In this document: positions 367 through 16,322 of the stretch, piece after piece
Position numbering within the stretch: the first letter of the stretch is position 1
Layout: the number at the start of each line of letters is the position of its first letter
Assembly (NCBI GenBank): GCA_041686025.1
Contig: JAWLEP010000052.1
Span: 1-16,322 of the forward strand
DNA length: 16,322 nt
Origin: Candidatus Fermentibacteraceae bacterium
Lineage (GTDB): Bacteria; Fermentibacterota; Fermentibacteria; Fermentibacterales; JCC-6
Direction: 5' to 3'
The notes under the pieces: model-generated
Told to the model about the DNA's origin: nothing
Seen by the model: only the letters and a program-made list of their open reading frames with translations
Database searches by the model: none
Made by a program: the position numbers and the translations under genes

Positions 367-388
367 TACATCTCCTTTCGTTCGTCCA

Positions 389-416
389 AATATATTTGAG
401 CCTAGCCCGGGGTCAA
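389..416 (-). promoter_or_regulatory. Putative sigma70 promoter of the amidohydrolase gene
   Basis: Minus strand reads TTGACC (416-411), 16 nt, TATATT (394-389), just upstream of the SD/ATG, in an AT-rich patch within GC-rich DNA. Confidence 0.55.
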
Positions 417-421
417 CGGCA

Positions 422-1318: not shown

Positions 1319-1383
1319 ACCCCCGGCCCCTGTCTTTCCGCAAGCCTCTCTCTGACGCATAGTAGAAGCAGGATCCGAAGCGG

Positions 1384-1389
1384 TATAAT
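1384..1389 (+). promoter_or_regulatory. Putative -10 element for the HD-GYP/cyclase operon
   Basis: Perfect TATAAT in the short divergent intergenic region, about 60 nt before ATG 1451. No convincing -35 seen. Confidence 0.4.
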
Positions 1390-1450
1390 AACCACCGTCC
1401 AGGCCGGCGGTACCGTCTTCCGCCGGGGCGATGGAAGGGAAAGCTCCGCC

Positions 1451-2569
1451 ATGGCAGGCCAGGCAGCTGACGCGGACGCCCACAGGCGCAACGCCGTAAT
1501 ACTGCGGATACTCAGGTCCATAGGCTCGGCCCGCAGCATCCGGCAGCTCATTACGCTGCTGGCGCGGGAGACCCGCATCGTCCTGAGCTGCCAGAGGGCC
1601 AGCGTCTTCCTCTACGACCCCGACGAGGAGGAGCTCTGGTCGCTGGTGGCGGAGGGCGAGTCGGACGAGATCCGCTTTCCCGTCGACACGGGAATCGCCG
1701 GGCACGTCTTCGAGACCGGGCAGCCCCTGGTGATAGGCGACGTTCCCTCAGACCCCCGGTTCAACCCGGAGATAGACGCCCGCACGGGATTCACCACCCG
1801 TCAGCTCATCACCGCCCCCATCATCGGCCCCGGGGGCGAGAAGGTGGGCGTCTTCCAGCTGGTGAACAGGCTGGAGGGGGATTTCGACGCCGGGGACCTG
1901 GAGTTCCTGGAGGCCATAGCCGGGGAGGCGGCGGTTACCATACAGAACTTCCAGATGCTGGAGAGCCGACGCCGGATGTTCGAGGGGCTGGTGAACGCCC
2001 TGGCGGAGTCCATCGAGTCCCGGGACCCCCTCACCGCCGGCCACAGCTACCAGGTGATGCTCTACTCGGTGGAGGCCGCCCGGGAGCTGGGTCTGGACTC
2101 CCGGCAGATAGAGACCATCAGGTACGCGGCACTGCTGCACGACTACGGCAAGATCGGCATACCCGACAGCATACTCAAGAAGGACGGGGCCCTCTCCGGC
2201 GACGAGAGGGCCATAATCCGAACCCACGTCGAGCACACCGAGAAGATACTCTCGAGGATCGAGTTCGAGCGGGGGCTTCGGGACGTCCCCCGCTTCGCCG
2301 TAGAGCACCACGAGCGCCTTAACGGCTCGGGCTACCCCAGGGGTCTGGCCGGGGAGGACATCTCCCTGGGGGGGCGGATAATCGCCGTAGCCGACGTCTT
2401 CGAGTCCCTGACATCCCAGCGCCATTACCGAAGCCCCATGCCCTTCCCGGAGGCCCTGGCCGTCATCCGTGAGGGGGCCGGAGATCTGTTCGACCGGGAG
2501 GTGGTGGAGGCCTTCGTCCGGGTCCTGTCCAGGCTGGGCCTCGCAGAGAAGCCGGAGCACGGAGCTTGA
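1451..2569 (+). CDS. GAF + HD-GYP domain cyclic-dinucleotide phosphodiesterase
   Basis: GAF motifs RASVFLYD, GIAGHVFETG, DPRFNPEIDARTGFTTRQLITAPI, GVFQLVN, FDAGD. HD-GYP motifs GHS, LLHDYGKIG, HHERLNGSGYPRGL, IAVADVFESL, RHYR. Start chosen at ATG 1451. Confidence 0.92.
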   Translation: MAGQAADADAHRRNAVILRILRSIGSARSIRQLITLLARETRIVLSCQRASVFLYDPDEEELWSLVAEGESDEIRFPVDTGIAGHVFETGQPLVIGDVPSDPRFNPEIDARTGFTTRQLITAPIIGPGGEKVGVFQLVNRLEGDFDAGDLEFLEAIAGEAAVTIQNFQMLESRRRMFEGLVNALAESIESRDPLTAGHSYQVMLYSVEAARELGLDSRQIETIRYAALLHDYGKIGIPDSILKKDGALSGDERAIIRTHVEHTEKILSRIEFERGLRDVPRFAVEHHERLNGSGYPRGLAGEDISLGGRIIAVADVFESLTSQRHYRSPMPFPEALAVIREGAGDLFDREVVEAFVRVLSRLGLAEKPEHGA

Positions 2570-4707
2570 GCGACGTTTCGACCGCGAGGGTGGTGGGGCG
2601 CCTGCTGAGGCCGGACTCCTTCACCGTACGCCTGATCCTGGTGGCCCTGGCCTCGGTGCTGATGACGGCCCTGCTCTCATCCACCGGCATCGTCAGGCAG
2701 TGGGAGTGGACCCTCCTCGACTACCGGCACCGGCTGACCCCGGACCCGGAGGGCGCCGACGACTCCATGGTCCTGGTGGTGCTCAACGGCGACTCCATGG
2801 ACCGGCTCTCCTGGCTCTCCTGGCCCTGGCCGCGGCAGATATACGCCGACTGCCTGGACATCCTCTCCCGCTGGGGGGCCCGGACGGTGGTCTTCGACAT
2901 CCTCTTCGACCTGCCCTCCATATACGGCGGCGCCGACGACCAGGCCCTGGGCCGGGCCGCCTCCCGCACCACGTCCCTCTTCGCGGTGGAGGCCCACAGC
3001 AGGGTCCACGGGGGGCGCAGAGACACCATTCCCGACAAGGCCCTGCTCCCCGGCGCCAGGCTTCTGGGCAGTCCCGACACCGTGCTCTCCTGCAACCCGC
3101 CTGCCGGCGAGATACTGGCCGGCGCCCACCTGCTGGGGAGCACGTCGCAGTCCCCCGACGACGACGGCGTGTTCCGACGGATCCGGGTGGCCAGGGCCTC
3201 CCCGGAAGGGGTGGTCCCCTCCCTTCCCCTGGCGGCGGCATGGACCCTCACCGGCGAGGGTCCGGTTACGGTGACGCCCCGCCGGCTGGAGCTGGCGGGA
3301 AGGTCGGTCCCCCTGGACGGCGACTACGGCATGATCCTCCATTACCACGGCCCGAGGGAGACCTACACCTACGTCCCCATCGCCGACCTGCTGGCGTCCA
3401 TGGAGGCCCTGGCCGCCGGCGAGCCCCCTCTGGTGGACTCCACCCTCTTCGAAGGGGCCACCGTTCTCTTCGGCTATACGGCGGCCGGGCTCATGGACCT
3501 CAAGCCCACCCCATTCTCATCGGTCTACCCGGGAGTGGAGGTCCTGGCCACGGCTCTGGACAACATGCTCTCCGGCAGAGCGGTAAGGCCCCTTTCTCCC
3601 CTGGCGGGATGGGCAGCTGCCGCCCTTCTGGCCCTTCTGGCGGCGGTGGCTTTCCGGGCGGTCCCCAGCGTCTACCTGGCAGCCCTGGCGGCGCTGGCCC
3701 CCATGGCCGTCTACCTGGCGGCGGCGCTTCTGCTGTTCGGCAGGGGAATATGGATGGACATGGCCTTCCCCCTCTCGTCGGGCATACTGGCCCTGATCGG
3801 AGGCGGCGTTGTATCCTACAGCCACGCCACCAGCCAGAAGAGGTTCATCAGGAAGGCCTTCTCCCAGTACCTCTCCCCGGAGGTAGTGAGCCAGGTCATC
3901 TCCACCCCCGAGAGACTGTCCCTGGGCGGAGAGAAGAGGGTGATGACGGCCTTCTTCTCCGACATCCGGGGATTCACCGCCATATCCGAGGGGCTGGACC
4001 CCACCGAGCTGGTGGGCCTTCTCAACGTCTATCTCACCCGAATGGCCGACATCATCATGGAGGCCGGCGGTACCGTGGACAAGTTCGAGGGGGACGCGGT
4101 GATAGCCTTCTGGGGGGCGCCCCTGGAGCTTCCCGACCACGCCGCCAGGGCCTGCGGGGCGGCCCTGGACTGCCGAGACATGCACGGAGAGCTGAACCGC
4201 CGACTCTCCCGGAGGGGCTACCCGGAGATAGTCACCAGGATCGGTCTGAACTCCGGACCAATGGTGGTGGGCAACATGGGCTCGGAGAAGCGCTTCGACT
4301 ACACGATGATGGGCGAGGCGGTGAACCTGGCCGCCAGGCTGGAGGGGGTCAACAAGACATACGGCACGCTGACCATGTGCTCCGCGGAGACTGCGCAGGC
4401 GGCGGGAGACGGCTTCGTCTTCCGCCAGCTGGACACGGTCAGGGTGGTGGGCCAGAAGCGTCCGGTAACCGTCATGGAGCTGGTGTGCCGCAAGGGTTGC
4501 CTGGACCCGGACCGGGAGCGTATCCTGCAGGGGTATCGGCAGGCGCTGGCCGCGTACAGGCGGGGCGCGCTGGCGGAAGCCGGGGAGCTGTTCGCCAGCA
4601 TGGAGACCGACCCTCCCTCGGCGTTGATGGCGCAGAGGTGCGCCGCCATGCTGCAGGGGGACATGGAGACTTGCCAGGACGGGGTATTCGTCCTCGAGAG
4701 CAAGTAG
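2566..4707 (+). CDS. CHASE2-domain class III adenylate cyclase (membrane-bound)
   Basis: CHASE2 motifs WPWPRQIYA, VVFDILF, DDDGVFRR, VLFGYTAAGLMDLKPTP, YPGVEVLATALDN, followed by three TM helices. Cyclase core FFSDIRGFT, DKFEGDAVIAFWG, RIGLNSGPMVVGNMGS, DYTMMGEAVNLAARLE. TTG start overlaps the upstream stop (TTGA). Confidence 0.93.
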   Translation: MSDVSTARVVGRLLRPDSFTVRLILVALASVLMTALLSSTGIVRQWEWTLLDYRHRLTPDPEGADDSMVLVVLNGDSMDRLSWLSWPWPRQIYADCLDILSRWGARTVVFDILFDLPSIYGGADDQALGRAASRTTSLFAVEAHSRVHGGRRDTIPDKALLPGARLLGSPDTVLSCNPPAGEILAGAHLLGSTSQSPDDDGVFRRIRVARASPEGVVPSLPLAAAWTLTGEGPVTVTPRRLELAGRSVPLDGDYGMILHYHGPRETYTYVPIADLLASMEALAAGEPPLVDSTLFEGATVLFGYTAAGLMDLKPTPFSSVYPGVEVLATALDNMLSGRAVRPLSPLAGWAAAALLALLAAVAFRAVPSVYLAALAALAPMAVYLAAALLLFGRGIWMDMAFPLSSGILALIGGGVVSYSHATSQKRFIRKAFSQYLSPEVVSQVISTPERLSLGGEKRVMTAFFSDIRGFTAISEGLDPTELVGLLNVYLTRMADIIMEAGGTVDKFEGDAVIAFWGAPLELPDHAARACGAALDCRDMHGELNRRLSRRGYPEIVTRIGLNSGPMVVGNMGSEKRFDYTMMGEAVNLAARLEGVNKTYGTLTMCSAETAQAAGDGFVFRQLDTVRVVGQKRPVTVMELVCRKGCLDPDRERILQGYRQALAAYRRGALAEAGELFASMETDPPSALMAQRCAAMLQGDMETCQDGVFVLESK

Positions 4708-4720
4708 GAGCGGAGGAGAT

Positions 4721-5293
4721 ATGAGATCGAGAGGGTGCAGGATATGGGCTGCCGCCGCCCTGCTGGGGGCCGTGCTGGCCTCCGGGGCGGCAGTGGCCGA
4801 GGACCCGCCCGAGGCGGGGAGCCAGGCCACCGTCAAGGTGCGGTCGCAGCATATGTTTCCCAGGCCCGTCTTCTACGCCGAGCCGCTGGCCGAGCTGAGC
4901 TTCGGCGAGGTCCTTACACTGGGCGAGAGCAGCGGCGACTGGTTCAGGGCCACCCGTTCTGGGGGAACCTCGGGATGGGTCCACGCCACGGCGCTGACGG
5001 GAGCGGTGGCCGGCGAGGGCGACATCGGCTCCGGGTCCGGAGAGGTGAGCTCCGACGAGGTCATGCTGGCCGGCCGGGGCTTCAACAGCCAGGTGGAGGA
5101 TGCCTACAGCAGCGACCACCCGGAGCTGGACTTCTCCGAGGTGGACGCCATGGAGAGGCTGGAGGTAACCCCTTCGGAGCTGGAGAGCTTCCTGGCCGAG
5201 GGGGGCCTCATTGAGTCCACCGGCTCCTCCGGAGGCGACTCCGGTGACTCCGGGTCCTCCCCGGACTCCGGCCGCGGAAGGGGGAGGAGCTGA
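4721..5293 (+). CDS. Exported SH3-type domain protein
   Basis: SD GGAGG. Signal peptide (basic N-terminus, AAALLGAVLA, AVA cleavage site). Bacterial SH3-like pattern LSFGEVLTLGESSGDWFRA...GTSGWVH. C-terminal EVMLAGRGFNSQVE segment. Confidence 0.75.
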   Translation: MRSRGCRIWAAAALLGAVLASGAAVAEDPPEAGSQATVKVRSQHMFPRPVFYAEPLAELSFGEVLTLGESSGDWFRATRSGGTSGWVHATALTGAVAGEGDIGSGSGEVSSDEVMLAGRGFNSQVEDAYSSDHPELDFSEVDAMERLEVTPSELESFLAEGGLIESTGSSGGDSGDSGSSPDSGRGRGRS

Positions 5294-6246
5294 TGGTCTG
5301 CGCAATGATTCTGGCTGCAGCGCTCGGCTGGGGCCTGGACGACCTCGACGACGTTGTGGACGTGGTGGAGAGCGACGAGGTCCAGACGGCCATCGAGGTG
5401 GGCGAGTCGTTCCATGACGCCGCCCGGGAGATCAGCGAGACCGAGGAGTACTACATAGGGCGCGCGGTGGCCGCCAACATACTGCACCGCTACTCCCCGG
5501 TGTCCGACCCCGACGTACAGGCCTACATCAACGAGGTGGGCAGGGCGGTATCGGTCTACTCCCCCCGGCCCGCAACCTACGGAGGCTATCACTTCCTGCT
5601 GCTGGAGAGCGGAGAGATAAACGCCATGGCCTGCCCCGGAGGGCTGGTGTTCGTAACCCGGGGCCTGTACGACCTGGCCGACAGCGAGGACGAGCTGGCC
5701 GCCGTACTGGCCCACGAGATATCCCACGTGGCCCTGAAGCACGGCCTGAGGTCCGTGGAGAAGGCCAAGTGGACCGGGGCCTTCGCCCAGCTGGGAACGG
5801 CAGCGGCGGAGCGGTACGGCAGCGACGAGGTCCGCGAGCTGTCCGAGAGCTACGGCGACGTAGTGAGCGACATCACCACCAACCTGGTGACCCGCGGGTA
5901 CAGCCGCGACTCCGAGAAGCAGGCCGACAGCCTGGCGGTGGCCATACTGGACCGTTCCGGCTACGACCCCGCGGCGCTGAAGAGGGTCCTGGAGGCCATG
6001 GCCGCCATGGACAGCCGTTCGGGGCCGGGCTTCTGGCAGACCCACCCCTCCCCCGAGGACAGGCTGGACGTGGTGGAGGAGTCCCTCGACGGGTGCACCG
6101 GCACCCCCAGGGGGATGGCGGAGAGAACCGCCCGCTTCGCGGAGAGGTCGGCGGTGGACGCCAGCGCCCCGGAGACCACTGATTCGGGAACCTCCGGCCG
6201 CGGCGGCCGGTCCTCCGGCGGCTCCAGCGGAGGGGGAAGGCGCTGA
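5293..6246 (+). CDS. M48-family (BepA/YfgC/Ste24-like) zinc metallopeptidase, probably exported
   Basis: INAMACPGGLVFVTRGL, EDELAAVLAHEISH (HExxH), GYSRDSEKQAD, GYDP and THP motifs. TGATG overlap with the upstream gene. Confidence 0.93.
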   Translation: MVCAMILAAALGWGLDDLDDVVDVVESDEVQTAIEVGESFHDAAREISETEEYYIGRAVAANILHRYSPVSDPDVQAYINEVGRAVSVYSPRPATYGGYHFLLLESGEINAMACPGGLVFVTRGLYDLADSEDELAAVLAHEISHVALKHGLRSVEKAKWTGAFAQLGTAAAERYGSDEVRELSESYGDVVSDITTNLVTRGYSRDSEKQADSLAVAILDRSGYDPAALKRVLEAMAAMDSRSGPGFWQTHPSPEDRLDVVEESLDGCTGTPRGMAERTARFAERSAVDASAPETTDSGTSGRGGRSSGGSSGGGRR

Positions 6247-6260
6247 CCGGGAAAGCACCA

Positions 6261-6288
6261 GGGCGGCCGGACCCGGCTCCGGCCGCCC
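6261..6288. terminator. GC-rich hairpin after the M48 gene (possible terminator or processing site)
   Basis: Perfect 11-bp stem GGGCGGCCGGA/TCCGGCCGCCC with a 6-nt loop; no U-tract. Confidence 0.4.
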
Positions 6289-6301
6289 CTCCCCTGCAGT
6301 C

Positions 6302-7075
6302 TTGATCGGCCGGGAGACCCCGGCCGCCCTGCTGCTGGCGCTGCTGGCCCTGTGCGGGGGCCGGCGGACCCCGGCGGGGACGTCCCTTTGGACCCCCGAC
6401 ACGCTGTACACGCTGCCCCACGACCCCGCCGTCTACACCCAGGGACTGGAACTTCGCGGCGGAGTGCTCTACGAGAGCTCCGGGGGGTACGGCAGAAGCG
6501 CCATTCACACGGTGGACCCCTCCACCGGCCGGGTCCTCTCCAGGCGCAGACTGCCCGATGACATATTCGCCGAAGGGCTCACCTTCCATGAAGACAGCGG
6601 CTACCTGCTCACCTGGAGGGAGGGCCTGGTTCTCGTATTCGACCCCTCCTCCCTGGAGGTCACGGACACGCTGCAGCTGGCCGGCGAGGGCTGGGGCGTA
6701 TGCTCCGACGGACAGAACCTGTACACCTCCAACGGCAGCGCCGCCCTTGTCGTCCGCAGCCCCCGGAACATGTCTCCGCTGGACACCCTGACGGTGACCC
6801 TCGGCGGCGTGCCCCGGCCCGGCCTCAACGAGCTGGAATGGACCGAGTCGGGCATACTGGCCAACCGCTGGGGCACCGACAGGATACTGCGGATCTCCCC
6901 ATCCACCGGCGAGGTGCTGGAGGTGATGGACATCTCCCCCTTCTCCGAGTCGGGCCTGCCGGGGAGGGACGTGATGAACGGCATTGCCGTGATGGACGAC
7001 AGCCTGCTCCTGGTCACCGGCAAGCTGTGGCACAGGTACCTCGTCTTCCCCCTGCCGGACGGAACCCGCCGATGA
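6302..7075 (+). CDS. Glutaminyl-peptide cyclotransferase (bacterial/plant-type glutaminyl cyclase)
   Basis: Motifs PHDPAVYTQGL, LYESSGGYGRS, FAEGLT, LTWRE, GEGWG, SNGS, LNELE, VMNGIA, VTGKLW. Hydrophobic N-terminus ending LLALC (possible lipoprotein). TTG start is uncertain. Confidence 0.9.
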   Translation: MIGRETPAALLLALLALCGGRRTPAGTSLWTPDTLYTLPHDPAVYTQGLELRGGVLYESSGGYGRSAIHTVDPSTGRVLSRRRLPDDIFAEGLTFHEDSGYLLTWREGLVLVFDPSSLEVTDTLQLAGEGWGVCSDGQNLYTSNGSAALVVRSPRNMSPLDTLTVTLGGVPRPGLNELEWTESGILANRWGTDRILRISPSTGEVLEVMDISPFSESGLPGRDVMNGIAVMDDSLLLVTGKLWHRYLVFPLPDGTRR

Positions 7076-8382
7076 GGGACTCCATCCGAGACGCCGCTTC
7101 CACCTACAGAAGCGGCCTGGAGAACGGCTCCTTCGACTGGCGTCACATGCTGCGGGCCCTGCGCTGGCGCAACTTCCGCCTCTACTTCATCGGACAGGCC
7201 TTCTCGCTTACGGGCACCTGGATGCAGCGGGTGGCCCTGGGCTGGCTGGTATACAGGCTCACCGACTCCGAGACCATGCTGGGACTGGTGAGCTTCGCGG
7301 GGAGGATACCCAACATCCTGGTCCTGCCCTTCTCGGGCGTTCTGGCGGACAGGGTCAACAGGCACGCGGTGATGATGGTGGCCAGGGGGTTCGCCATGCT
7401 GCAGGCGGCCACGCTGGCGGTGCTGGTGCTCACCGGGGTGGTGCGTATATGGCACATAATCGTCCTGTCGCTGGTGATGGGGACGATCTTCGCCATGGAC
7501 GCGCCATCGAGGCAGGCCTTCATATACCAGGTCGTGGGCAGCAAGCGCGACCTGAGCAACGCCGTGGCCCTGCACTCCGCCGTATTCAACCTGGCCCGCC
7601 TGGTGGGGCCGGCCCTGGCCGGGCTGCTGGTGGCCCTGGCCGGCGAAGGGCCCGTCTTCCTGGTGAACGCCGCCTCCTACCTGGCCGTTCTGGCGGCCCT
7701 GGCCATGGTCAGGGTGGAGCCCCCTCCCAAGACCCGCAGGCGAAAGACCCTTCACCAGCTGCGGGAGGGCCTCTCCTACGCCTCCCGCACCCCCCCGGTG
7801 CGGGCCATACTCCTGCTGCTGCTGGCCACCAGCCTGCTGGCCTTCCCCTACCTGGTGCTGATGCCGGCCTTCGCCCGGGGAGTCCTGGGGGGCGACTCCC
7901 GCACCCTGGGCTGGCTCATGGGCTCCATTGGGGCGGGGGCGCTGGTGGGGGCGGCCTTCATCTCCTCGCGCCGCGACAACCTCTTCCTCTGGCACCAGAT
8001 ACCAGTATCCGGCCTGGCCCTGGGACTGGGGGTGGCCGGCTTCACCCTCTCCCGCAGCGTTCCCCTCTCCTGCGCCCTGCTGGTCCTCCCGGGCTTCGGC
8101 CTGATGACCCTGATGTCCTCCTGCAACACGGTGCTTCAGACCCTGGTGCCGGAAAGGGCCCGGGGGCGCGTCATGAGCCTATACTACATCTCCTTTCTGG
8201 GGATGATGCCCTTCGGAAGTCTGATCATGGGCTCCCTGGCCGAGCACTTCGGCACTCCCCAGACCGTCATGGTGGGTGGGCTCCTCTCGGCAGTAGCCTC
8301 CCTCCTCTTCGCCGCCCAGATCGATTCCATCCGCTGCTGCGCCTCCAGGCTGAAGGGCGAGGAGGCCTCTGCCGACGACTGA
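7072..8382 (+). CDS. MFS transporter (MFS_3/EntS-like, 12 TM)
   Basis: RNFRLYFIGQAFSLTGTWMQRVALGWLV, GVLADRVNR, DAPSRQA, NAVALHS..FNLARLVGPALAG, RGRVMSLY. ATGA overlap with the glutaminyl cyclase stop. Confidence 0.9.
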   Translation: MRDSIRDAASTYRSGLENGSFDWRHMLRALRWRNFRLYFIGQAFSLTGTWMQRVALGWLVYRLTDSETMLGLVSFAGRIPNILVLPFSGVLADRVNRHAVMMVARGFAMLQAATLAVLVLTGVVRIWHIIVLSLVMGTIFAMDAPSRQAFIYQVVGSKRDLSNAVALHSAVFNLARLVGPALAGLLVALAGEGPVFLVNAASYLAVLAALAMVRVEPPPKTRRRKTLHQLREGLSYASRTPPVRAILLLLLATSLLAFPYLVLMPAFARGVLGGDSRTLGWLMGSIGAGALVGAAFISSRRDNLFLWHQIPVSGLALGLGVAGFTLSRSVPLSCALLVLPGFGLMTLMSSCNTVLQTLVPERARGRVMSLYYISFLGMMPFGSLIMGSLAEHFGTPQTVMVGGLLSAVASLLFAAQIDSIRCCASRLKGEEASADD

Positions 8383-8565
8383 GCCTCCGCGGGAAGCCCC
8401 TGCCCGCTCCCCGAACCCGCGCCTTGACGCGGCGACGGATGAGAACATATCCAACCCTGTTCGAACGCCGCACCTCCCGCCGTTCCCGACCCGGAGGAGC
8501 CGGAGCAGGGGAACCGGGGGTCAACGGCCCCGTCACCCGGCGCGGCCCTTGTCGTGGAGGACCGA

Positions 8566-10074
8566 TTGCTAAACGCCCAGACGCTTCGCATCATCCTCAC
8601 CGGCCTGGGGGTTGGGCTGGTCATCGGCATTGCGCTGTGGATGATCAGGCGCCACACCGACAGGAGCCGCATACGCCTGTGGGTAATCCTCACCATTCTC
8701 AACGGGCTGATATACGTCCTGCTCCGCATGGCGGGCCTCCCCCCGGAGAACACCGTATGCAAGATCGTACTCGCAACGGCGATATTCCTGGCGGCCAACA
8801 CCCTGCTGCGTTTCCTCAACTACCTGGTATGGGACGTCGTCCTGCGGGAGAAGCGCGACGTGGTGGTGCCCCGCCTGGTGATAGACATCATCAACTTCAT
8901 CTTCCTGGCGGTGGTGGCCATAGCCGTCCTCAACAGCATCTTCAACGTCCAGCTCACCGCCTTCCTGGTTACATCCACGGTGATCTCGGCGGTAATCGGT
9001 CTCTCCCTGCAGGACATCCTGGGCAACATCTTCGCGGGGCTGGCGCTGCAGATCGAGCGCCCCTACAACGTCAACGACTGGGTGAGCGTCAGCGGTTACG
9101 AGGGCCGGGTGGTGGAGCGAAACTGGCGGACGGTCACCCTCCTCACCCGCGAGAACCACGTGGTCAACATTCCCAACGCCACCGTATCCAAGGAGCCGGT
9201 GGCCAACTACACCAAGACCGATCCCCTGGAGATGGGGCACGCCTTCGTCGGCGTGGCCTACGACCATCCCCCGGGAGTGGTAAAGAACGTGATCATAAAG
9301 GCGGTGCGGGAGACCAAGGGCGTCCAGTCCGATCCCTGCCCCGACGTGCTGGTGAAGGAGTTCGCGGATTTCTCCATTGTCTACGACGTCCGCTACTGGA
9401 TTCGCGATTACCGGCGCAAGCCCCAGATAGACGACGCTGTCAAGTGCAGGATCTGGTACTCCCTGCACCGCGCGGGACTCAAGATCCCCTTCCCGGTCAG
9501 GGACGTCATCGTCCATACCCTGCCCCCCGACCACGACGCACGGATACGCCAGAAGCTGCACCGGGAGATATCGGACGAGCTGCGCAGGCTCGATCTCTTC
9601 TCTCCCCTGTCCGACCAGCAGATCGAAGAGCTGGCCTCCAGTTCCGCAAAGCTACGCTATGCGGAAAACGAGACCCTGGTCAGGCAGGGAACTCCCGGCG
9701 AGTCCCTCTACCTGATCCGCACCGGCCGCGCCCGAGTGGAGGTATCCGGCGCGGGCGGATCCAGGGCCACGGTGGCCGAGCTGGGACCCGGGGACTTCTT
9801 CGGCGAGATGAGCCTGCTCACCGGCGAGCCCCGCTCGGCTACGGTCAACGCCGTGGAGGAGACCGAGGTGGTTGTGGTGGACCGTGACGGACTGGCCCCC
9901 ATCCTGGCATCGGACATGGGAATTGTGGAGCAGCTCTCGGAGCATCTGGAGAAACGCCGCAGCGAGCTGGAAGCCAGCCTGGCCGAGCTGTCCTCCCGCC
10001 GCTCCCGGGCCCGCAAGGGGAAGGAACGGAAGGATGACCTTCTCAGCCGGATCAGGGGCTTCTTCGGAGTCTGA
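8566..10074 (+). CDS. MscS-family mechanosensitive channel with C-terminal cNMP-binding domain (bCNG-like)
   Basis: MscS core IGLSLQDILGNIFAGLALQIERPYNVNDWV, NWRTVTL, IPN, IPFP. cNMP-binding cassette LVRQGTPGESLYLI...LGPGDFFGEMSLLTGEPRSATV. Start placed at TTG 8566, 5 nt after GGAGG; in-frame GTG 8554 is the alternative. Confidence 0.9.
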   Translation: MLNAQTLRIILTGLGVGLVIGIALWMIRRHTDRSRIRLWVILTILNGLIYVLLRMAGLPPENTVCKIVLATAIFLAANTLLRFLNYLVWDVVLREKRDVVVPRLVIDIINFIFLAVVAIAVLNSIFNVQLTAFLVTSTVISAVIGLSLQDILGNIFAGLALQIERPYNVNDWVSVSGYEGRVVERNWRTVTLLTRENHVVNIPNATVSKEPVANYTKTDPLEMGHAFVGVAYDHPPGVVKNVIIKAVRETKGVQSDPCPDVLVKEFADFSIVYDVRYWIRDYRRKPQIDDAVKCRIWYSLHRAGLKIPFPVRDVIVHTLPPDHDARIRQKLHREISDELRRLDLFSPLSDQQIEELASSSAKLRYAENETLVRQGTPGESLYLIRTGRARVEVSGAGGSRATVAELGPGDFFGEMSLLTGEPRSATVNAVEETEVVVVDRDGLAPILASDMGIVEQLSEHLEKRRSELEASLAELSSRRSRARKGKERKDDLLSRIRGFFGV

Positions 10075-10138
10075 CGTCCCGCCGCCGCCCTCAGGAGGGC
10101 CTCCGTCTCCGGGGCATCAGCCGACAGGGAGGTAGTCG

Positions 10139-11383
10139 CTGCACGCTTTCTGGATCCTCTACCTGAGGGAGATGCGCAGCTTCCTGCGGGAGCGGCAGGT
10201 GGTTCTGTTCTCCATTGCCGTTCCCATTGTCCTCTACCCCCTTCTCATGTGGGGTATGTTCACCATGATGAGCCTGGCCCAGGAGCGGGGGGCGGACCTC
10301 CGTCCGCGGGTCGGACTGGTGGGACCGTCCTCACCCCGGGACCTTCCGGGCAGTCTGGCCGACCTCGAATCCGTGGAGTGGCTGGCGGTCCCGGCGGATT
10401 CTCAACGAGCCGCAGAGGCCGTCGGAACCGACAGTCTGGATGCCGTCCTCATCGTACGGCCGGGGCCGTCATTCGAGATGCTGTACGACGGCAGCGGAGA
10501 GGCTGGCCCCCTGGCCAGACGGCGGATTGGAAATGCCCTGGAAGACGCCCGGGAGCACGAGCTGCGGAGAAGGGCCATGCTCCACGGGGTCTCCCCCACC
10601 TCGTGGGAGTACTTCCACATGAAGGCCCTGGACATAGCCAGCCGGAGGGAGCACGGCAGCTTCATGCTCAGCCTGATGCTGCCCGTCTTCTTCACCGTGA
10701 TGGTTGCGGTAGGCAGCTTCTATCCTGCCGTAGACTCAACCGCCGGCGACCGGGAGAGAAGGACGTGGGAGACGCTGATGTCCTGCGGTGTGAGCCGAAA
10801 TGCAGTACTGGCCGCCAAGTACCTTTCGGTGACTACATTGGGGACGACTGCGGGCCTGCTGAACGTAGGATCCATGACCCTTACGCTATCCACGATACTG
10901 GCCCCCCTGGCCAGTGGGGCGCAGATGCCGGCGTTCAGCCTCTCCGCCGGCTCGATACCCCTGGTTCTGCTGTCGTCTCTGCTTCTGGCCGCCATGGTCT
11001 CTGCGGGGATGATGATACTGGCGTCCTTCGCCAGGGACTTTCGCGAGGGGCAGGCACTGGTGCAGCCCTTCTACATAATGGCAATCCTTCCGGCCCTACT
11101 GCTGCAGCTTCCCGGCCTGAGACTGGAAGCGCTGACGGCCCTGATTCCCTTTCTCAACACGGCTCTGCTGGTGAGGGCCGCGGTTCTGGGTACCGCGGGT
11201 CTGGTGCCGACGGCCATAACGGTTGCAGTCTCGGCCACAGCCATCGCTCTGATGATGAGGGCCGCAGGACGCATATCCCTTCAGGAGGGTGCCGCCGCTG
11301 GAGATATGCGCCTGCGCGCACCGGCGCTGCTGCAGTCCTTTATCGACAAACGCTCCCGAAAAGAGGGTGCACATGCAGGATAG
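10139..11383 (+). CDS. ABC-2 type exporter permease, NatB-like
   Basis: N-terminal TM, extracytoplasmic loop, then AVDSTAGDRERRTWETLM...AKYL and SFARDFREGQ motifs. First ATG is at 10172, but the SD and N-terminal pattern point to CTG 10139 (see findings). Confidence 0.85.
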   Translation: MHAFWILYLREMRSFLRERQVVLFSIAVPIVLYPLLMWGMFTMMSLAQERGADLRPRVGLVGPSSPRDLPGSLADLESVEWLAVPADSQRAAEAVGTDSLDAVLIVRPGPSFEMLYDGSGEAGPLARRRIGNALEDAREHELRRRAMLHGVSPTSWEYFHMKALDIASRREHGSFMLSLMLPVFFTVMVAVGSFYPAVDSTAGDRERRTWETLMSCGVSRNAVLAAKYLSVTTLGTTAGLLNVGSMTLTLSTILAPLASGAQMPAFSLSAGSIPLVLLSSLLLAAMVSAGMMILASFARDFREGQALVQPFYIMAILPALLLQLPGLRLEALTALIPFLNTALLVRAAVLGTAGLVPTAITVAVSATAIALMMRAAGRISLQEGAAAGDMRLRAPALLQSFIDKRSRKEGAHAG

Positions 11384-12128
11384 CACCATCCAGATAGAGA
11401 ACCTGGTCAAGGTCTACCATGACAGGGCCCGGGGCGAGGTCCGGGCGGTGGACGACATCACCTTCTCCTGCCGATCCGGCGAGATATTCGGCCTGCTGGG
11501 TCCCAACGGCGCCGGCAAGACAACGACTCTCCGTACCGTGTCCACAGTGCTGGAGCCCAGCAGCGGAACGGTACGCGTCATGGGAATCGACGCCCGCCAG
11601 GACCCTGTGGCCGTCAGGCGCTCCATAGGATTCTACTCCTCCACGACTGCCCTTTTCCCGAGGCTTACCGCCCGGGAGACACTGAGGTTCTTCGCAGAGG
11701 TAAACGGCTACCCCGGTGAAGTCCGGCAGAGGGTGGAAGAGGTCATACATGATCTCGACCTGGGCAGCTACGCAGACGTACGCGTAGACCGACTCTCCCA
11801 GGGAATGAGGCAGAAGGTCTCCCTGGCCAGGACCGACATCCACGACCCCCCCGTACTGATCCTCGACGAGCCCACTACCGGCCTGGACGTTCTCAACGCC
11901 CGGGAGATTAGGGACCGCATATCAATCCTCCGGGACCGGGGAAAGACGGTTCTGTTCTCCACGCACATCATGGCGGAGGCGGAGAAGCTGTGCGACCGAA
12001 TCGCCATCATCCATGAGGGCAGGCTGCTGGGCACCGGTACGCTGGAGGAGATCCGCGAAAGAACGGGCGAGAGATACCTGGAGGATGCTTTCGTCAAGCT
12101 GCTGCTGAGGCGTGGTGCCGATGGCTGA
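11373..12128 (+). CDS. ABC exporter ATP-binding subunit, NatA-like
   Basis: Walker A GPNGAGKTT, signature LSQGMRQK, Walker B VLILDEPTTGLD, H-loop FSTHIM. Start at ATG 11373 overlaps the upstream permease. Confidence 0.93.
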   Translation: MQDSTIQIENLVKVYHDRARGEVRAVDDITFSCRSGEIFGLLGPNGAGKTTTLRTVSTVLEPSSGTVRVMGIDARQDPVAVRRSIGFYSSTTALFPRLTARETLRFFAEVNGYPGEVRQRVEEVIHDLDLGSYADVRVDRLSQGMRQKVSLARTDIHDPPVLILDEPTTGLDVLNAREIRDRISILRDRGKTVLFSTHIMAEAEKLCDRIAIIHEGRLLGTGTLEEIRERTGERYLEDAFVKLLLRRGADG

Positions 12129-14166
12129 CCGGGCCGGCCGGCTGTCAAGGATATCCTCGGTGTTCCTGCATCAGCTCAAATCCGTTCTGCGCGACCGACG
12201 TACGATCTTTTTGGCCTTCGTCCTTCCTCTGCTGATCGTACCTGCGATGATACTCCTATCGGGCTGGATAACCGATGTTCGGGAGGAGCAGAGGGAATCG
12301 GTGGAGATAGAGTACGCCGTGGTCGGCCCCCACGGCGACAGGGCCGCGAACATGGTCAGGCTGGCGGGGCAGCACACGGCCGAGAATGACACCCTGACAT
12401 CGCTCGCCCTGAAGGAGGAGACACCGGAATCGCCTCTGTCCTCACTGGCCGACGGTGAGCTGCACCTGGTGGTGCGGCTGGTCCGATCCTCCAAGATCCA
12501 CAGCGAAGGAGAGTCCGGCACGTCCAAGACCCCCATGCTCGTTCTCTACTACCGCGGAGACAGCGACGAGTCCGGATGGGCAATGGAGGAGCTGGGCTCC
12601 GCGCTGGAGGAGCTGAGGACGGCCCAGCGCCGGGAGCTGCTGCTGTCCAGCGCGACGGTGACGAAGCCCGACTCGTTCATGGCTCTCCAGCTCACAGATG
12701 TGGCCCCCGAGGGCCGGGCGGCAGCCTATACCATAGGCCGCCTGACCACTCTCTTCGTTCTTTTCTTCATCCTGGCCGGTGGTTCTGTGGTGGCCATGGA
12801 TCTGGTGGCCGGCGAGAGGGAGAGGGGCAGCCTGGAGACCCTGCTGACCACCGCCATTACACGGCGGGAGCTTGCCCTCTCCAAGCAGCTGATCGTGCTG
12901 GCAATAGCCCTGGCAATCTGCATTCTGCAGGTGCTCAATCTGCTTCTCTACACGTCTCTGGGGCTGCTGGACAGCCCCCTTGCCGAGGCCGCCATCTCCC
13001 CTGCCCGGCTTATCGTGGTCCTTCTGCTCCTGCTTCCGGTGGCCTTCCTGGCGTCGGGGATTCTCCTGCTGATATCCAGCAGGGCCCGCAGCTACCGGGA
13101 GGCCCAGATCCTCCTGTTTCCCGTTGTGCTGCTGGGAGCAGTCCCGGCAGCTGCACCGCTCATACCCGGTATCAGTCTGAGCTCCGCGGTCCTGGCCGTC
13201 CCCGTTGCCAACATAGCCCTGGCCGTCCGCGGCGTGCTCACGGGAGGTGTCAATCCGGCGCTTGCGGCGGTGTCATGGATCATCACGGGCGGCGCCGGCA
13301 TCGCAGTCTCTCTATGGGCCGCCAGACTCATGGGCAGCTCACTGTCACCGGAGGCAGACGTTCTCCCCACCAGCCCGATACAACTGAGGCTGCGCCTTTT
13401 CTCGAAGTCGGCACCCAGGGCCTTCCTGCCCATGTTCGCCCTGGTTCTGGTCTCCAGCAGCCTCTTCTCCGACGATCTCGCCCTGCAGATCATCGCCAAT
13501 ACCGTTCTCATTCTCCTGGGCGGCTCCCTCCTGCTTCTCAAGCGCTACCGTCTGCCTCTCAGGGAGACCCTGGGACTGCAACTGCCCAGCCCCCTCATCT
13601 GGCCATTCCTGGGGGCGGCAGTGCCGGCCGGGATCTTGCTCAGCTCCCACATATACCGGCTTTCAACCGCCCTCTTTCCCACCTCCGCCCGCATGATGGA
13701 GGAGATGTACGCCCGGGGCATAGGCCTGGATGCACCCCTCTGGCAGCTGCTCCTGCTGGGCGCCATCGTTCCCGCCGTCTGCGAGGAGGCCGCCTTCAGG
13801 GGAGTCCTGCTGGGAAGCGTCCGGCGTACGGTGGGCAGCGTATCGGCCGTAATCGTCTCCTCCCTTGTCTTCGGCCTATTCCACATGACTGCCGTGCGCT
13901 TCCTTCCCACAGCATTCCTCGGACTGATGCTGGGACTCTCCGTGGTCCTGACGGGATCGATCCTGCCCGCCATCGTCTGGCACGCACTCAACAACGCCCT
14001 GGCCCTCATACTGAGCGGCACCTCTCTGGATCCTACGTCTCCAGGCACCCTTCCGACCCTTGCCGCTGCCGCCACAATCTCGGCCGCCTTCTACGTCATG
14101 GCCAGGACCCGATCCGCTCCATCTCCGCAAGTCGCCCTTGACAGGCGGCATAGAGGGGATGGATAG
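12121..14166 (+). CDS. NatB-like ABC permease fused to a CPBP (CAAX/Abi) intramembrane metalloprotease
   Basis: Permease motifs LRDRRTIF, AMDLVAGERERGSLETLL, ARSYREAQ. C-terminal CPBP motifs CEEAAFRG, FGLFH, WHALNN are all intact. Confidence 0.88.
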   Translation: MADRAGRLSRISSVFLHQLKSVLRDRRTIFLAFVLPLLIVPAMILLSGWITDVREEQRESVEIEYAVVGPHGDRAANMVRLAGQHTAENDTLTSLALKEETPESPLSSLADGELHLVVRLVRSSKIHSEGESGTSKTPMLVLYYRGDSDESGWAMEELGSALEELRTAQRRELLLSSATVTKPDSFMALQLTDVAPEGRAAAYTIGRLTTLFVLFFILAGGSVVAMDLVAGERERGSLETLLTTAITRRELALSKQLIVLAIALAICILQVLNLLLYTSLGLLDSPLAEAAISPARLIVVLLLLLPVAFLASGILLLISSRARSYREAQILLFPVVLLGAVPAAAPLIPGISLSSAVLAVPVANIALAVRGVLTGGVNPALAAVSWIITGGAGIAVSLWAARLMGSSLSPEADVLPTSPIQLRLRLFSKSAPRAFLPMFALVLVSSSLFSDDLALQIIANTVLILLGGSLLLLKRYRLPLRETLGLQLPSPLIWPFLGAAVPAGILLSSHIYRLSTALFPTSARMMEEMYARGIGLDAPLWQLLLLGAIVPAVCEEAAFRGVLLGSVRRTVGSVSAVIVSSLVFGLFHMTAVRFLPTAFLGLMLGLSVVLTGSILPAIVWHALNNALALILSGTSLDPTSPGTLPTLAAAATISAAFYVMARTRSAPSPQVALDRRHRGDG

Positions 14167-14406
14167 TCCCTTTGTTCGCAAGTTGCCATGGAACCCAGCG
14201 TATCAGGACAGAGCGCCGCTTGAATCAGCCTTTTTCCACCCAATCAGAAAACCAGTCCCAGCACAGGTCTGTCCATCACGGCTGCGGGCTTCGGCCCTCA
14301 GAACTTCGAGGCACGCAACTCGTGGGCTTCGAAGGGGCCGGGGAAGTGCCCCGGTCCGTATTTTCCAACCCGCGGGGCTCGGAAGCCCTGGAAAGCAGCA
14401 GGTATT

Positions 14407-14664
14407 ATGAATAATAAGCTCTTTGTCGGCGGTCTCGCCTGGTCAACAACTGACGACAGCCTCAAGGCTGCGTTCGATGAGTTCGGAGAGGTGACCGAGG
14501 CTCGCGTCATCACAGACCGCGAGACCGGCCGCTCCCGCGGATTCGGCTTCGTCTCCTTCACCGACCCGGCTCATGCGCAGGCGGCCAAGGACGCCATGGA
14601 CAACCAGCCCATAGACGGCAGGAACGTCCGGGTGGATTTCGCCCACGACAAGGGCCGCAGCTAG
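14407..14664 (+). CDS. RRM (RNP-1) RNA-binding protein, single domain
   Basis: RNP2 KLFVGGL and RNP1 RGFGFVSF, with DRETGRSRG; 85 aa, no Gly-rich tail. Confidence 0.95.
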   Translation: MNNKLFVGGLAWSTTDDSLKAAFDEFGEVTEARVITDRETGRSRGFGFVSFTDPAHAQAAKDAMDNQPIDGRNVRVDFAHDKGRS

Positions 14665-14684
14665 AGCGGACCGCTTCAGGCAAG

Positions 14685-14715
14685 AGGCCGGGAAATCTTG
14701 ACGGTTTCCCGGCCT
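14685..14715. terminator. Hairpin downstream of the RRM gene
   Basis: Perfect 11-bp stem AGGCCGGGAAA/TTTCCCGGCCT with a 9-nt loop; no real U-tract. Confidence 0.5.
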
Positions 14716-14726
14716 GCATCTATGTT
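14698..14726 (+). promoter_or_regulatory. Putative sigma70 promoter for tRNA-Asn
   Basis: TTGACG (14698-14703), 17 nt, TATGTT (14721-14726); 27 nt separate it from the tRNA 5' end. Confidence 0.6.
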
Positions 14727-14753
14727 CACCGCTGCTTCTACAGGGATCTCTGC

Positions 14754-14829
14754 TCCCCGATAGCTCAGTTGGTAGAGCGGGTGGCTGTTAACCACTAGGT
14801 CGCAGGTTCGAGTCCTGCTCGGGGAGCCA
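14754..14829 (+). tRNA. tRNA-Asn (GTT)
   Basis: 76 nt. Acceptor stem TCCCCGA/TCGGGGA, D-arm AGCTCAGTTGGTAGAGC, anticodon GTT at 14787-14789, T-loop GGTTCGAGTCC, discriminator G and encoded CCA. Confidence 0.98.
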
Positions 14830-14961
14830 TTCCTCTATGAAGTAGCGGATGTTGTCATTGCGGGTAGGTAAGTCGAACGGGGGATTGAAGCCCGCGGATA
14901 TGAGTGGCCTGTGGCATCATGACCTTGGGAGTCAAATTCTCTATTGCATAACTATGGTTAG

Positions 14962-15411
14962 CTAGTCTGAAGTATCGAGCTTAACTAGACTCTCATGCAG
15001 CCCTAAGAAGGAGACTACTGGGAGAATAACTGCTTCATAAGGCCCTCTCCCAGTTATACTTGCGAGATATTCTCTTGTTGCTGAGTACAAAAGAGAGGCT
15101 CCATTATCTGCCGCGACTTTGAATACGTCTTCATCGGGAACAGTTTCGCCGACCTCATAATGGCCTACAGCGAGAATGTTGAATCTGTACGGTGCTCTTC
15201 CTTCATTACCGTCATATTTCAAGTGAAGCAATATGCGGTAATTCCTTCGATTCTCATTGACTTGTTGCACGGTAGTTTTACACTCAAGTCCTTTTAGCGC
15301 ATCTTTCGGCTGCACTTGATCAACTGACCCGTACTCAGGATTTGCCGTAACGTTGGTTACTGGGAAGTAGTAGTTAGCTAGCTTGAGCGGAAAACCCCGC
15401 ATACTCACCAT
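14962..15411 (-). CDS. SecB-like chaperone (TAC-type)
   Basis: 149 aa. beta-strands YRILLHLKY / PYRFNILAVGHYEV, then NGASLLYSATREYLASITGRGPYEAVILPVVSF, which matches the SecB C-terminal pattern LFPYxRExIxxxxxRGGFPPxxLxPVNF. Alternative start at ATG 15402. Confidence 0.8.
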   Translation of the reverse strand: MVSMRGFPLKLANYYFPVTNVTANPEYGSVDQVQPKDALKGLECKTTVQQVNENRRNYRILLHLKYDGNEGRAPYRFNILAVGHYEVGETVPDEDVFKVAADNGASLLYSATREYLASITGRGPYEAVILPVVSFLGLHESLVKLDTSD

Positions 15412-15847
15412 CTTTCTCCCACAGACATTCCTGGGTTACAGAACCTTCGATACGGTCCGACCAATCCTCATTGACTACACTTTTTCGATTCAGGACTGGA
15501 AGAACAGAAGAATCTCTATAGAAAGGAATGGGATCAACAATACAGGAGTACCAGTCACGCATTGCTATTGATTTTGGCTCGAGACCAATACAAGGTACAT
15601 AGCCTAGAACCCATGCGCACTTTACTATTGTTTCTAGCGTAAAGTTCTTTCCCTCTTGTCTTAATATCTTCGATACATTGGGAGGACTGGTATCGAGAGC
15701 TCGTGCCATATCTGCTTTAGATATTCCCTCTTTATCCATTTTAGACAGTATCTCATCAACATACTCCAGAGAGAGGCGTTCAATCCAGTACTCCTCGGTC
15801 TTTCTTGCTTCATCAAGTAGTCTGCGAGCTCGCTTACTTGCCTTCAT
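15374..15847 (-). CDS. XRE-family HTH antitoxin (HigA-like) with C-terminal extension
   Basis: HTH GISKADMARALDTSPPNVSKILRQEGKNFTLETIVKCAWVLG. SD GAGGAG. TAATG coupling to the toxin. About 65 extra C-terminal residues. Confidence 0.85.
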   Translation of the reverse strand: MKASKRARRLLDEARKTEEYWIERLSLEYVDEILSKMDKEGISKADMARALDTSPPNVSKILRQEGKNFTLETIVKCAWVLGYVPCIGLEPKSIAMRDWYSCIVDPIPFYRDSSVLPVLNRKSVVNEDWSDRIEGSVTQECLWEKDGEYAGFSAQAS

Positions 15848-16245
15848 TAGTCCTCCTCTATGATGTGGAGGCTTCCCTCTTTCTTGGCCCGGAAATACTT
15901 CTCTCTTGCTCTTACTGCCCTTCTTATATGCTTTCTCGGCGTCTTCTTGCTGTCCTTAATGAAACAATGCGTAAGGATAATAATTCTACCCTCATCGTAG
16001 AAATAGGGGACTCTAAGCGGTCCAGCAGTAAACTGGAATACTTTCTTCGCGATATTGTGTGATACATCTGATCTACGCGTAGGCCCACTTTTACTTGCAT
16101 GCTCCAAGTTACTCATTAGTGTAGCTCTATTGCCCCCCATGTCTTTTTGTAGGCTCTCTAGAAAATCCATGAAAGTGTCTTCACCTCTGCGTCCACAAAC
16201 TGAAAGCACTCGCCATCGATCCTCAAAGACTAGCCGAAGTTCCAT
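15847..16245 (-). CDS. Type II TA toxin, RelE/ParE superfamily (HigB/Gp49-like)
   Basis: 132 aa, basic. VFQFTAGPLRVPYFYDEGRIIILTHCFIKDSKKTPRKHIRRA matches the Gp49/HigB pattern IxEhR...RhhYF...hhhLxHxFxKKxxKTPxxxIxxA. Toxin-first gene order as in higBA. Confidence 0.88.
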   Translation of the reverse strand: MELRLVFEDRWRVLSVCGRRGEDTFMDFLESLQKDMGGNRATLMSNLEHASKSGPTRRSDVSHNIAKKVFQFTAGPLRVPYFYDEGRIIILTHCFIKDSKKTPRKHIRRAVRAREKYFRAKKEGSLHIIEED

Positions 16246-16274
16246 ATTAACTCATAAGTTAATACCATTGTCAA
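16245..16274 (-). promoter_or_regulatory. Palindromic operator plus -35 box of the TAC operon
   Basis: TATTAACT-CATA-AGTTAATA (16245-16264), perfect 8-bp arms, abutting the toxin ATG. Consensus TTGACA on the minus strand at 16274-16269. Confidence 0.7.
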
Positions 16275-16322
16275 GCCCCCAAGTTCCAATCGGTCCGCGT
16301 ATGACGATAACAACATATGCCC

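Follow-up and report, generated by a model that had tools for sequence, protein, structure and literature searches.

The 16,322-nt contig JAWLEP010000052.1 of a Candidatus Fermentibacteraceae bacterium (GenBank assembly GCA_041686025.1), the whole of which is called the window here, ends in three overlapping minus-strand genes for a HigB/Gp49-type toxin, an XRE-type helix-turn-helix (HTH) antitoxin and a SecB-like protein. We read this trio as a working, chaperone-dependent toxin-antitoxin-chaperone (TAC) module, with a probability of roughly 0.8, and, from its genes and composition, as a HigBA-type TAC operon that was likely acquired horizontally. The gene order, overlaps and families fit a toxin-antitoxin-SecB-like operon on one strand, as read from the genes rather than from a transcript. 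The layout proposed in the first-pass annotation (overlapping genes, a TAATG junction, a 38-nt overlap, low GC) was confirmed. The toxin stop and the antitoxin start share one base in TAATG, preceded by a AGAGGAGG Shine-Dalgarno sequence, and the antitoxin and chaperone frames overlap by 38 nt counting from the first ATG or by 29 nt with a start at Met4, the position at which homologs of the SecB-like chaperone begin. The fraction of guanine plus cytosine (GC) is 0.446 over the trio (14962 to 16245) versus 0.663 over positions 1 to 14753 of the same contig, and at third codon positions it is 0.37 to 0.45 in the three genes versus 0.62 and 0.78 in two adjacent host genes. Only 6 of 5,268 1-kb segments of the genome fall below 0.50, the trio region among them. 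The low GC supports horizontal acquisition, as had been suggested, and so does the fact that none of the other searched genomes of the phylum has the trio. Feature coordinates are collected in Table 1.

The toxin matches Pfam Gp49 (PF05973) with an E value of 9.3e-13 (48.5 bits, where the cut-off is 23.9) and PHROG 2523 with an E value of 1.6e-10, and its gene sits upstream of that of the HTH antitoxin. A profile built from relatives of the toxin (four rows) matches Streptococcus pneumoniae HigB (6AF3) at 4.6e-5; the other 18 of its 19 matches are triosephosphate isomerases at 0.17 or worse. The assignment to the RelE/HigB/Gp49 group was thus borne out. Residues were mapped through the weak alignment to 6AF3 and the correspondences of PMC9098466, with K99 placed by spacing. 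On that weak alignment, which left K58 and N73 outside the mapping, four of the six mapped catalytic residues of the Mycobacterium tuberculosis TAC toxin (HigB-TAC) are kept, with R78, F95, K97 and K101 corresponding to R77, F93, K95 and K99. Ribosome-dependent mRNase activity is described as a trait of Gp49-family toxins (PMC11980606), and the toxin is predicted from sequence to be an mRNase acting on ribosomes. A word-indexed protein search with the toxin returned near-identical copies only (one of three candidates), a scan with a two-row toxin alignment returned nothing, a seven-row alignment returned the same five loci only, and two related toxins had no match among plasmids.

The antitoxin carries its HTH at residues 36 to 82 (Pfam HTH_26, E value of 3.7e-5, above the cut-off; HTH_3, 1.7e-4) and can be aligned with the antitoxins of related triads. 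Behind the HTH follows a C-terminal tail of 67 residues, compared with 53 to 64 residues in seven related triads and three in a two-gene relative. The tail contains eight aromatic residues, of which W99 and W129 are spaced 30 apart. TAC antitoxins are defined by a variable C-terminal extension, and W108 and W137 are important in M. tuberculosis HigA1 (PMC5105189); a 30-residue step between aromatics is likewise described for the tail of an Escherichia coli HigA (10.1101/2024.02.24.581848). The antitoxin had no match among plasmids, and its alignment gave no usable search pattern.

The third gene was said to encode a chaperone easily mis-annotated as hypothetical, and rightly so: it matches Pfam SecB (PF02556) at an E value of 4.5e-4 with 20.6 bits, under the cut-off of 26, and falls far below the NCBIfam cut-offs (TIGR00809, 13.6 versus 102.8; NF004392, 18.7 versus 143). 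It does match the PADLOC model PD-T4-9_C (CmdC) at 2e-5, and its top three Atlas clusters, at scores of 0.94 to 0.95, bear SecB on 18 to 63% of their members. A word-indexed protein search returned near-identical copies only (one of 14 candidates), and phmmer gave no significant match to Rv1957 (E value of 0.11). Two plasmid homologs annotated as SecB (32% and 37%) seeded a profile that drew 171 proteins from 4,194 candidates; 110 of the 120 listed among these, with the query, gave an alignment of 111 rows. The AlphaFold2 model made from it has four strands and a long helix at a predicted local distance difference test (pLDDT) score of 87.7, compared with 35 when the protein was folded from its single sequence. 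With this model, Foldseek ranks 1 to 10 were all SecB or Rv1957 chains (E values of 2e-6 to 9e-6), as the first-pass annotation had anticipated, and VIA gave Z scores of 12.8 to SecB (root mean square deviation of 3.5 over 130 aligned residues), and 10.0 to Rv1957, with the first unrelated fold following at 5.7. The third gene is therefore predicted to have a SecB fold.

It is the only SecB-family (PF02556) match in its genome. Within the phylum, PF02556 is matched in 2 of 70 genomes, both times within a triad, and in none of the other 68. In the profile alignment, which spans two of the four E. coli SecB positions D20, E24, L75 and E77, L75 and E77 fall on Arg76 and Asn78 of the chaperone; both are required for SecA binding in E. 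coli (PMC4257090). Because the family is rare in the phylum and confined to triads there, and because L75/E77 are not kept, the chaperone does not, by its sequence, look like a housekeeping SecB. The other triad of the phylum (genome G062, contig C46; L037:238-1776) is a second and unrelated one, with a PF02556 E value of 0.0018 for its SecB-like gene, a 182-aa toxin-like open reading frame (ORF) without a Pfam match and an HTH antitoxin that carries a tail about 92 aa long.

Contact between tail and chaperone is weakly predicted. Four chaperone chains modelled with antitoxin residues 88 to 157 scored 0.48 (runs of 0.35, 0.48 and 0.52), whereas the best of three controls scored 0.01. Of 157 solved complexes, 116 attain the mark for such scores, and of 215 mismatched ones 2 do; at scores of 0.60 or less, it is attained by only 18 solved complexes and by both mismatches. 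The runs have at least 43% of contacts in common, the pLDDT of the partner is 39 to 41, and no interface is given. A like complex (5MTW) is already solved, so the pass may reflect that known structure. The complex of chaperone tetramer and tail that had been proposed for modelling is weakly supported.

Tail and chaperone gene occur together in the relatives. We opened seven distinct loci of the toxin clade, one on a Ralstonia megaplasmid (L041) and six from IMG/VR (L045, L047, L049, L050, L051 and L053), five of them reached from the toxin side alone and two (L045 and L047) through chaperone scans. All seven have the toxin, an HTH antitoxin whose tail measures 53 to 64 aa and a SecB-like third gene, the latter from two chaperone subfamilies, which upholds the expected co-conservation of the third gene with the toxin-antitoxin (TA) pair. 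Conversely, in all six genuine chaperone-homolog loci opened, the chaperone gene follows an antitoxin gene, of the MqsA family or MqsA-like in L039, L040 and L046 and of the HTH type in L045, L047 and L048. Nine distant Gp49 loci (L055 to L063, E values of about 1e-5) served as a control; they come from 8 of the 69 phylum genomes besides this one. In these loci the antitoxin extends no more than three residues past the HTH region, with a length of 96 aa in the seven intact pairs, and none of the nine has a match to the chaperone profile, with at least 467 nt of downstream DNA in seven of them and the second chaperone profile not applied. Together with the families and the fold, this co-conservation supports the TAC identity that had been assigned to the trio. 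Of the refuting conditions named in the first-pass annotation, none of those open to computation came true. Four further matches (L038, L042, L043 and L044) were dropped as spurious and short, L044 lying inside a helicase-like ORF; also excluded from the opened loci were plasmid hits H4 (97% like H3), H5 and H6 and the weak Streptococcus satellite-phage hits H7 to H9. The two-gene Gp49-HTH pair of L055 to L063 is near-identical between genomes and appears broken in L056 and L059. In L040 (positions 4805 to 6282, a Candidatus Thiodictyon plasmid), an MqsA-type TAC lies immediately upstream of DISARM drmA.

The best matches of the window toxin are L041, L049, L050 and L051 (E values of 1e-17 to 3e-16, the next being 4e-10), and three of these four also supply the best antitoxin matches. 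Their third gene is not detectably similar to the window chaperone (phmmer E value above 100; hhalign probability of 0.1) and matches Rv1957 by profile at 7.6e-5. The window chaperone clusters with the other subfamily (support 97/96) and, among the compared loci, scores highest with three MqsA-linked chaperones; the chaperone-tail pair is about 30% identical to its nearest relatives. The toxin tree leaves the place of the window toxin unsettled, the chaperone branch is long, and the trees are unrooted. Because the best toxin and antitoxin matches pair with a different SecB subfamily, the module looks mosaic, and its sequences suggest a chaperone swap between subfamilies. Chaperones are known to mix with different TA families (PMC3581621, PMC4257090). 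In L041 (5986-7335), L049, L050 and L051 the third gene encodes 173 to 174 aa and has no PADLOC match, nor a Pfam match in L041, the one checked. The L051 triad adjoins an integrase-like ORF.

A perfect palindrome runs from 16264 to 16245, as far as the first base of the toxin ATG; arms of 8 bp arose in 9 of 2,000 dinucleotide shuffles of the 80 nt upstream. All 13 upstream regions examined have its core, TAAC-N6-GTTA, 2 to 10 nt ahead of the toxin start, 12 of them exactly, and none of the 13 has a Shine-Dalgarno-like word before that start. These regions are those of the window, five triads and seven two-gene pairs, which are near-identical and amount to one case; L047 and L050, which have no upstream DNA, and the broken L056 and L059 are outside the count. 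Four exact copies of TAAC-N6-GTTA are present in the 2.7-Mb genome. Since HigA antitoxins regulate themselves at palindromes (PMC11980606, PMC6987408), this one is likely the antitoxin operator, by analogy. A repeat finder set at 10 nt misses an 8-bp palindrome, and a promoter and terminator scan found sites no more common than in shuffled sequence and none on the minus strand. Besides a -35 hexamer and TAAC-N6-GTTA, L055 to L063 have a -10-like hexamer some 6 nt ahead of the toxin ATG, which suggests leaderless translation there. We considered equating the palindrome with the Pseudomonas HigA/GraA operators and rejected it; TTAAC/GTTAA half-sites are common to both, but the spacing differs (PMC6987408, PMC6393540).

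A strain variant recovered from run X7 has 23 coding differences in the three genes, 15 synonymous and 8 non-synonymous (ratio of non-synonymous to synonymous change per site, pN/pS, 0.15; binomial p of 1.3e-5), and no stops or frameshifts. Per gene, the synonymous to non-synonymous counts are 5:1 in the toxin, 4:5 in the antitoxin and 6:2 in the chaperone. This one strain pair shows that the trio is under purifying selection. Contigs with near-identical pieces of all three genes are present in three of three RNA libraries, from two studies; strand and level are not readable in them, and they are compatible with transcription of the trio.

The window is the complete contig C52 of a 2.70-Mb genome in 87 contigs. 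The chaperone stop codon lies 132 nt from tRNA-Asn(GTT). Upstream of the toxin, 77 nt remain before the contig stops, and the far side of the low-GC region falls outside it; that far end was looked for in the assembly and could not be placed, and neither an integrase gene nor a repeat of the tRNA 3' end was found there. Contigs of runs X7 and X8 extend more than 1 kb beyond position 16322. The join between tRNA and trio is not an assembly error, because host flank and trio have equal depth (about 5) in run X4, from another study, and a contig of X6 spans from the tRNA end to the chaperone. DNA of the trio was matched in none of the genomes of 40 relatives. The same-genus genome G001 aligns as far as the tRNA end and continues there with a serine recombinase. 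Among the relatives listed, the DNA behind tRNA-Asn varies between genomes, and a recombinase-like gene stands directly behind it in G001 and G010 and, by similar N-termini, in G009, G011 and G021. The tRNA-linked island edge described in the first-pass annotation therefore stood as far as the tRNA is a hotspot; the recombinase element, on the other hand, inserts ahead of the trio, which is not part of its cargo.

This last point comes from run X7, where a 98.4% identical copy of 14824-16322 departs from the tRNA on its left side at 14824. The 30 loose letters of that copy are the HTH-side arm of an element family, with one copy in this genome and three in G001, each with GAGCC and then different host DNA after it. 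In G001, the inverted arm sits behind tRNA-Asn. The family is genus-specific, uses a serine recombinase, has inverted arms of about 26 bp around a GAGCC core and occupies tRNA-Asn and at least three other sites (in this genome, C13:1979-2004, L064; in G001, contigs C21, C31, C3 and C19, L065 to L068; in the window, 14824-14829). Its recombinase gene was not found in this assembly. The trio does not lie between the two arms of the element: no arm is present behind the tRNA here, and in X7 the HTH-side arm ends at 14824 with the trio beyond it. In the X7 strain the element likely sits in the tRNA ahead of the trio, judging from this junction, and the trio is resident DNA past the integration site, probably an older islet. 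An excised circle, or an element in the opposite orientation carrying the trio, was ruled out as the source of the X7 junction, since four other sites carry the same arm with host DNA behind it.

Table 1. Positions of the trio and associated features in the window.
Feature	Coordinates	Strand	Remarks
Toxin gene, HigB/Gp49-type (RelE superfamily)	15847..16245	(-)	132 aa; no Shine-Dalgarno before ATG
Antitoxin gene, XRE-type HTH	15374..15847	(-)	157 aa; strong Shine-Dalgarno
SecB-like chaperone gene	14962..15411	(-)	149 aa (146 if start is Met4)
Antitoxin C-terminal tail, candidate chaperone-addiction (ChAD) element	15377..15577	(-)	67 residues
Perfect palindrome, candidate antitoxin operator	16245..16264	(-)	8-bp arms, 4-nt spacer, core TAAC-N6-GTTA
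TTGACA, perfect -35 hexamer	16269..16274	(-)	Read in the sequence; matching -10 uncertain
tRNA-Asn(GTT)	14754..14829	(+)	ARAGORN; integration hotspot
GAGCCA, last bases of tRNA-Asn, core used by the serine-recombinase element family	14824-14829		Site empty in this genome

The mechanism that we propose starts from the gene order, the families, the antitoxin tail, the co-occurrence of tail and chaperone in relatives and the purifying selection, and adds to these the predicted SecB fold and the weakly predicted tail-chaperone contact. By analogy with M. tuberculosis HigBA1-Rv1957 and with E. coli HigBAC and CmdTAC, the antitoxin would aggregate or be degraded unless the chaperone tetramer binds its tail. 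A stabilized antitoxin would neutralize the toxin and, as a dimer, repress the operon at TAAC-N6-GTTA, and the toxin, lacking a Shine-Dalgarno sequence, would be translated less than the antitoxin. A competing client, possibly a phage protein, would then titrate the chaperone, freeing a ribosome-dependent RNase that stops translation. If the trio is such a working TAC, the odds that its main job is phage sensing are about even; maintenance of the islet by addiction is somewhat unlikely to be that job, and stress sensing is more unlikely again.

Several findings weigh against a working TAC or its role in phage sensing. Q71 and T73 of the toxin occupy, on the weak alignment, the places of E66 and R68 of HigB-TAC. 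The toxin could be weak, because R68A abolishes the toxicity of the M. tuberculosis TAC toxin (PMC9098466); the E66/R68 pair is also absent from the four closest toxins. The tail is net acidic, with 11 Asp or Glu against 7 Lys or Arg, and SecB-binding motifs disfavour acidic residues (PMC5105189). The antitoxin ends in Gln-Ala-Ser, whereas six of the seven relatives end in an Ala-Ala ClpXP degron, the terminal dipeptide by which CmdA is marked for ClpXP (10.1101/2024.02.24.581848). The seven relatives are not independent cases, as L041 and L049 to L051 form one clade (support 89/97), and most of them come from a viral collection chosen for scanning, which inflates the apparent link to phages. 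The usual 17-nt spacing from TTGACA (16274-16269) would place the -10 against the toxin ATG. No defence genes are visible beside the trio, where the contig ends. Addiction, toxicity and trigger are, moreover, properties that we infer by analogy.

The differences in the toxin and tail would also fit an ordinary or decayed TA pair, with an attenuated toxin, an antitoxin that is independent of a chaperone and acts mainly as a repressor, and a SecB-like gene that is merely an independent neighbour. The catalytic-site changes at Q71/T73, the acidic tail without an Ala-Ala end, the weak support from the complex model and a chaperone subfamily that differs from that of the best toxin matches all point this way. 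Set against them, the genes overlap, tail and chaperone gene stand together in seven of seven relatives and are both missing from the two-gene controls, and the three frames are intact with a synonymous excess in the X7 variant. The toxin retains R78, F95, K97 and K101, and E66/R68 is likewise missing from the four closest toxins. We regard a decayed pair as improbable. We judge it just as improbable that the TAC senses proteotoxic or export stress, with unfolded or pre-secretory host proteins competing for the chaperone, which may double as the sole SecB. The genome has no other SecB-family match, a TAC chaperone can complement the loss of secB in E. coli (PMC5105189, PMC3581621), and a sentinel model of this kind has been proposed for M. 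tuberculosis (PMC4257090); yet 68 of 70 genomes of the phylum have no SecB match, which implies that the lineage exports proteins without SecB, and the SecA-binding positions L75/E77 are not kept.

Less easily set aside, though still unlikely, is a chaperone-dependent TAC without a phage trigger that serves mainly the selfish maintenance of the islet behind tRNA-Asn through post-segregational killing. In keeping with it, the DNA is low in GC and lies at an integration hotspot, the trio was not found in the 69 other phylum genomes searched, and related TACs sit among insertion sequence elements on plasmids; plasmid stabilization was the first description of HigBA, as recounted in 10.1101/2024.02.24.581848. 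The assembly, however, yielded no integrase or att repeat for an element of the trio's own, the recombinase element at tRNA-Asn does not include the trio, and a two-gene pair would be enough for addiction. One chaperone homolog directly precedes DISARM drmA, and the same source reports phage defence by three types of E. coli TAC tested to date. Within the preferred reading of a working TAC, we entertain, tentatively, a naturally re-assembled anti-phage version, in which a HigBA of the lineage with Rv1957-like chaperones took on an MqsRA/CmdC-like chaperone and a new Trp-spaced tail, and with them a new phage trigger, in a phylum with no native SecB, and with an active site that functions without E66/R68.

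Like the M. tuberculosis TAC (HigB1/Rv1955, HigA1/Rv1956 and Rv1957), the trio has the same gene order, a toxin of the Gp49 family whose C-terminal helix region is long and basic, an XRE-HTH antitoxin with two Trp about 30 apart in its C-terminal extension (W108/W137 of HigA1, PMC5105189), a SecB-fold third gene (VIA Z score of 10.0 to 5MTW) and a host lineage without a housekeeping SecB. Unlike that system, it lacks equivalents of E66/R68 in the toxin and a significant match of its chaperone to Rv1957, and its tail is 67 rather than about 45 aa long, is acidic and ends in Ala-Ser, not Val-Ala. HigBAC of E. coli NT1F31, compared here by its description in 10.1101/2024.02.24.581848, shares the order HigB-HigA-SecB-like, the 30-residue aromatic step and a setting in mobile DNA, but has a tail of 96 aa, resides in a lambdoid prophage rather than behind a tRNA and is triggered by lambda gpV. 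The E. coli systems CmdTAC (PD-T4-9) and MqsRAC resemble the locus in the chaperone, which matches CmdC and has its best matches behind MqsA-family or MqsA-like antitoxins; they differ in that the window toxin is Gp49/HigB-like, not an ADP-ribosyltransferase or MqsR, and the antitoxin is HigA-like without a zinc finger. Two-gene Gp49/HigB-HigA pairs (N15 gp49-gp48 type; L055 to L063) likewise have the toxin first and an XRE-HTH antitoxin, and in L055 to L063 TAAC-N6-GTTA before a toxin start without a Shine-Dalgarno sequence, but there the tail is three residues long and no match to the chaperone profile follows. The housekeeping SecB of Pseudomonadota shares the predicted fold (Foldseek E value of 2e-6, template modelling score of 0.56 to 0.66; VIA Z scores of 12.6 to 12.8), whereas the window protein is only 12 to 17% identical to it, stays below the Pfam and NCBIfam cut-offs, differs at L75/E77 and is encoded in a TA operon. 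No report of the locus, or of a TAAC-N6-GTTA operator for the toxin clade, was found in the literature searched; the 49-TAC table of PMC3581621 and the Mets neighbourhood figures may list relatives.

Elsewhere in the window and genome, some further genes deserve mention. An 85-aa protein at 14407-14664 (-), which we take to be a single RNA-recognition motif, has an RNA-library contig depth of 32 to 52 versus 3 to 6 over the trio. Genes for an ABC-2-type transporter lie at 10172-14166 (+), and the last permease is presumably fused to a CAAX-protease-like domain in a NatAB-like arrangement. The gene row at 842-6246 (+) presumably encodes a GAF plus HD-GYP protein, a CHASE2 plus adenylate/guanylate cyclase protein, an SH3-like protein and an M48-like peptidase. 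Other likely toxin genes lie in or near low-GC stretches of this genome at C37:937-1245 and C67:6324-6728, which we assume to be a RelE-like and a PIN-domain-like ORF, respectively.

That TACs occur in many phyla, mix with different TA families and spread by transfer has already been described (PMC3581621, PMC4257090), and the locus leaves existing knowledge of TACs unchanged. Its candidate TAAC-N6-GTTA operator recurs both within the toxin clade and in the related two-gene pairs. Few phage sensors are understood, TAC chaperones being among them, and laboratory hybrids shift the range of phages sensed (10.1101/2024.02.24.581848). To these the locus adds a distant chaperone-tail pair from a SecB-less lineage; its sensor module looks naturally swapped, and the locus would, as such, be a usable test case for the joint exchange of tail and chaperone.

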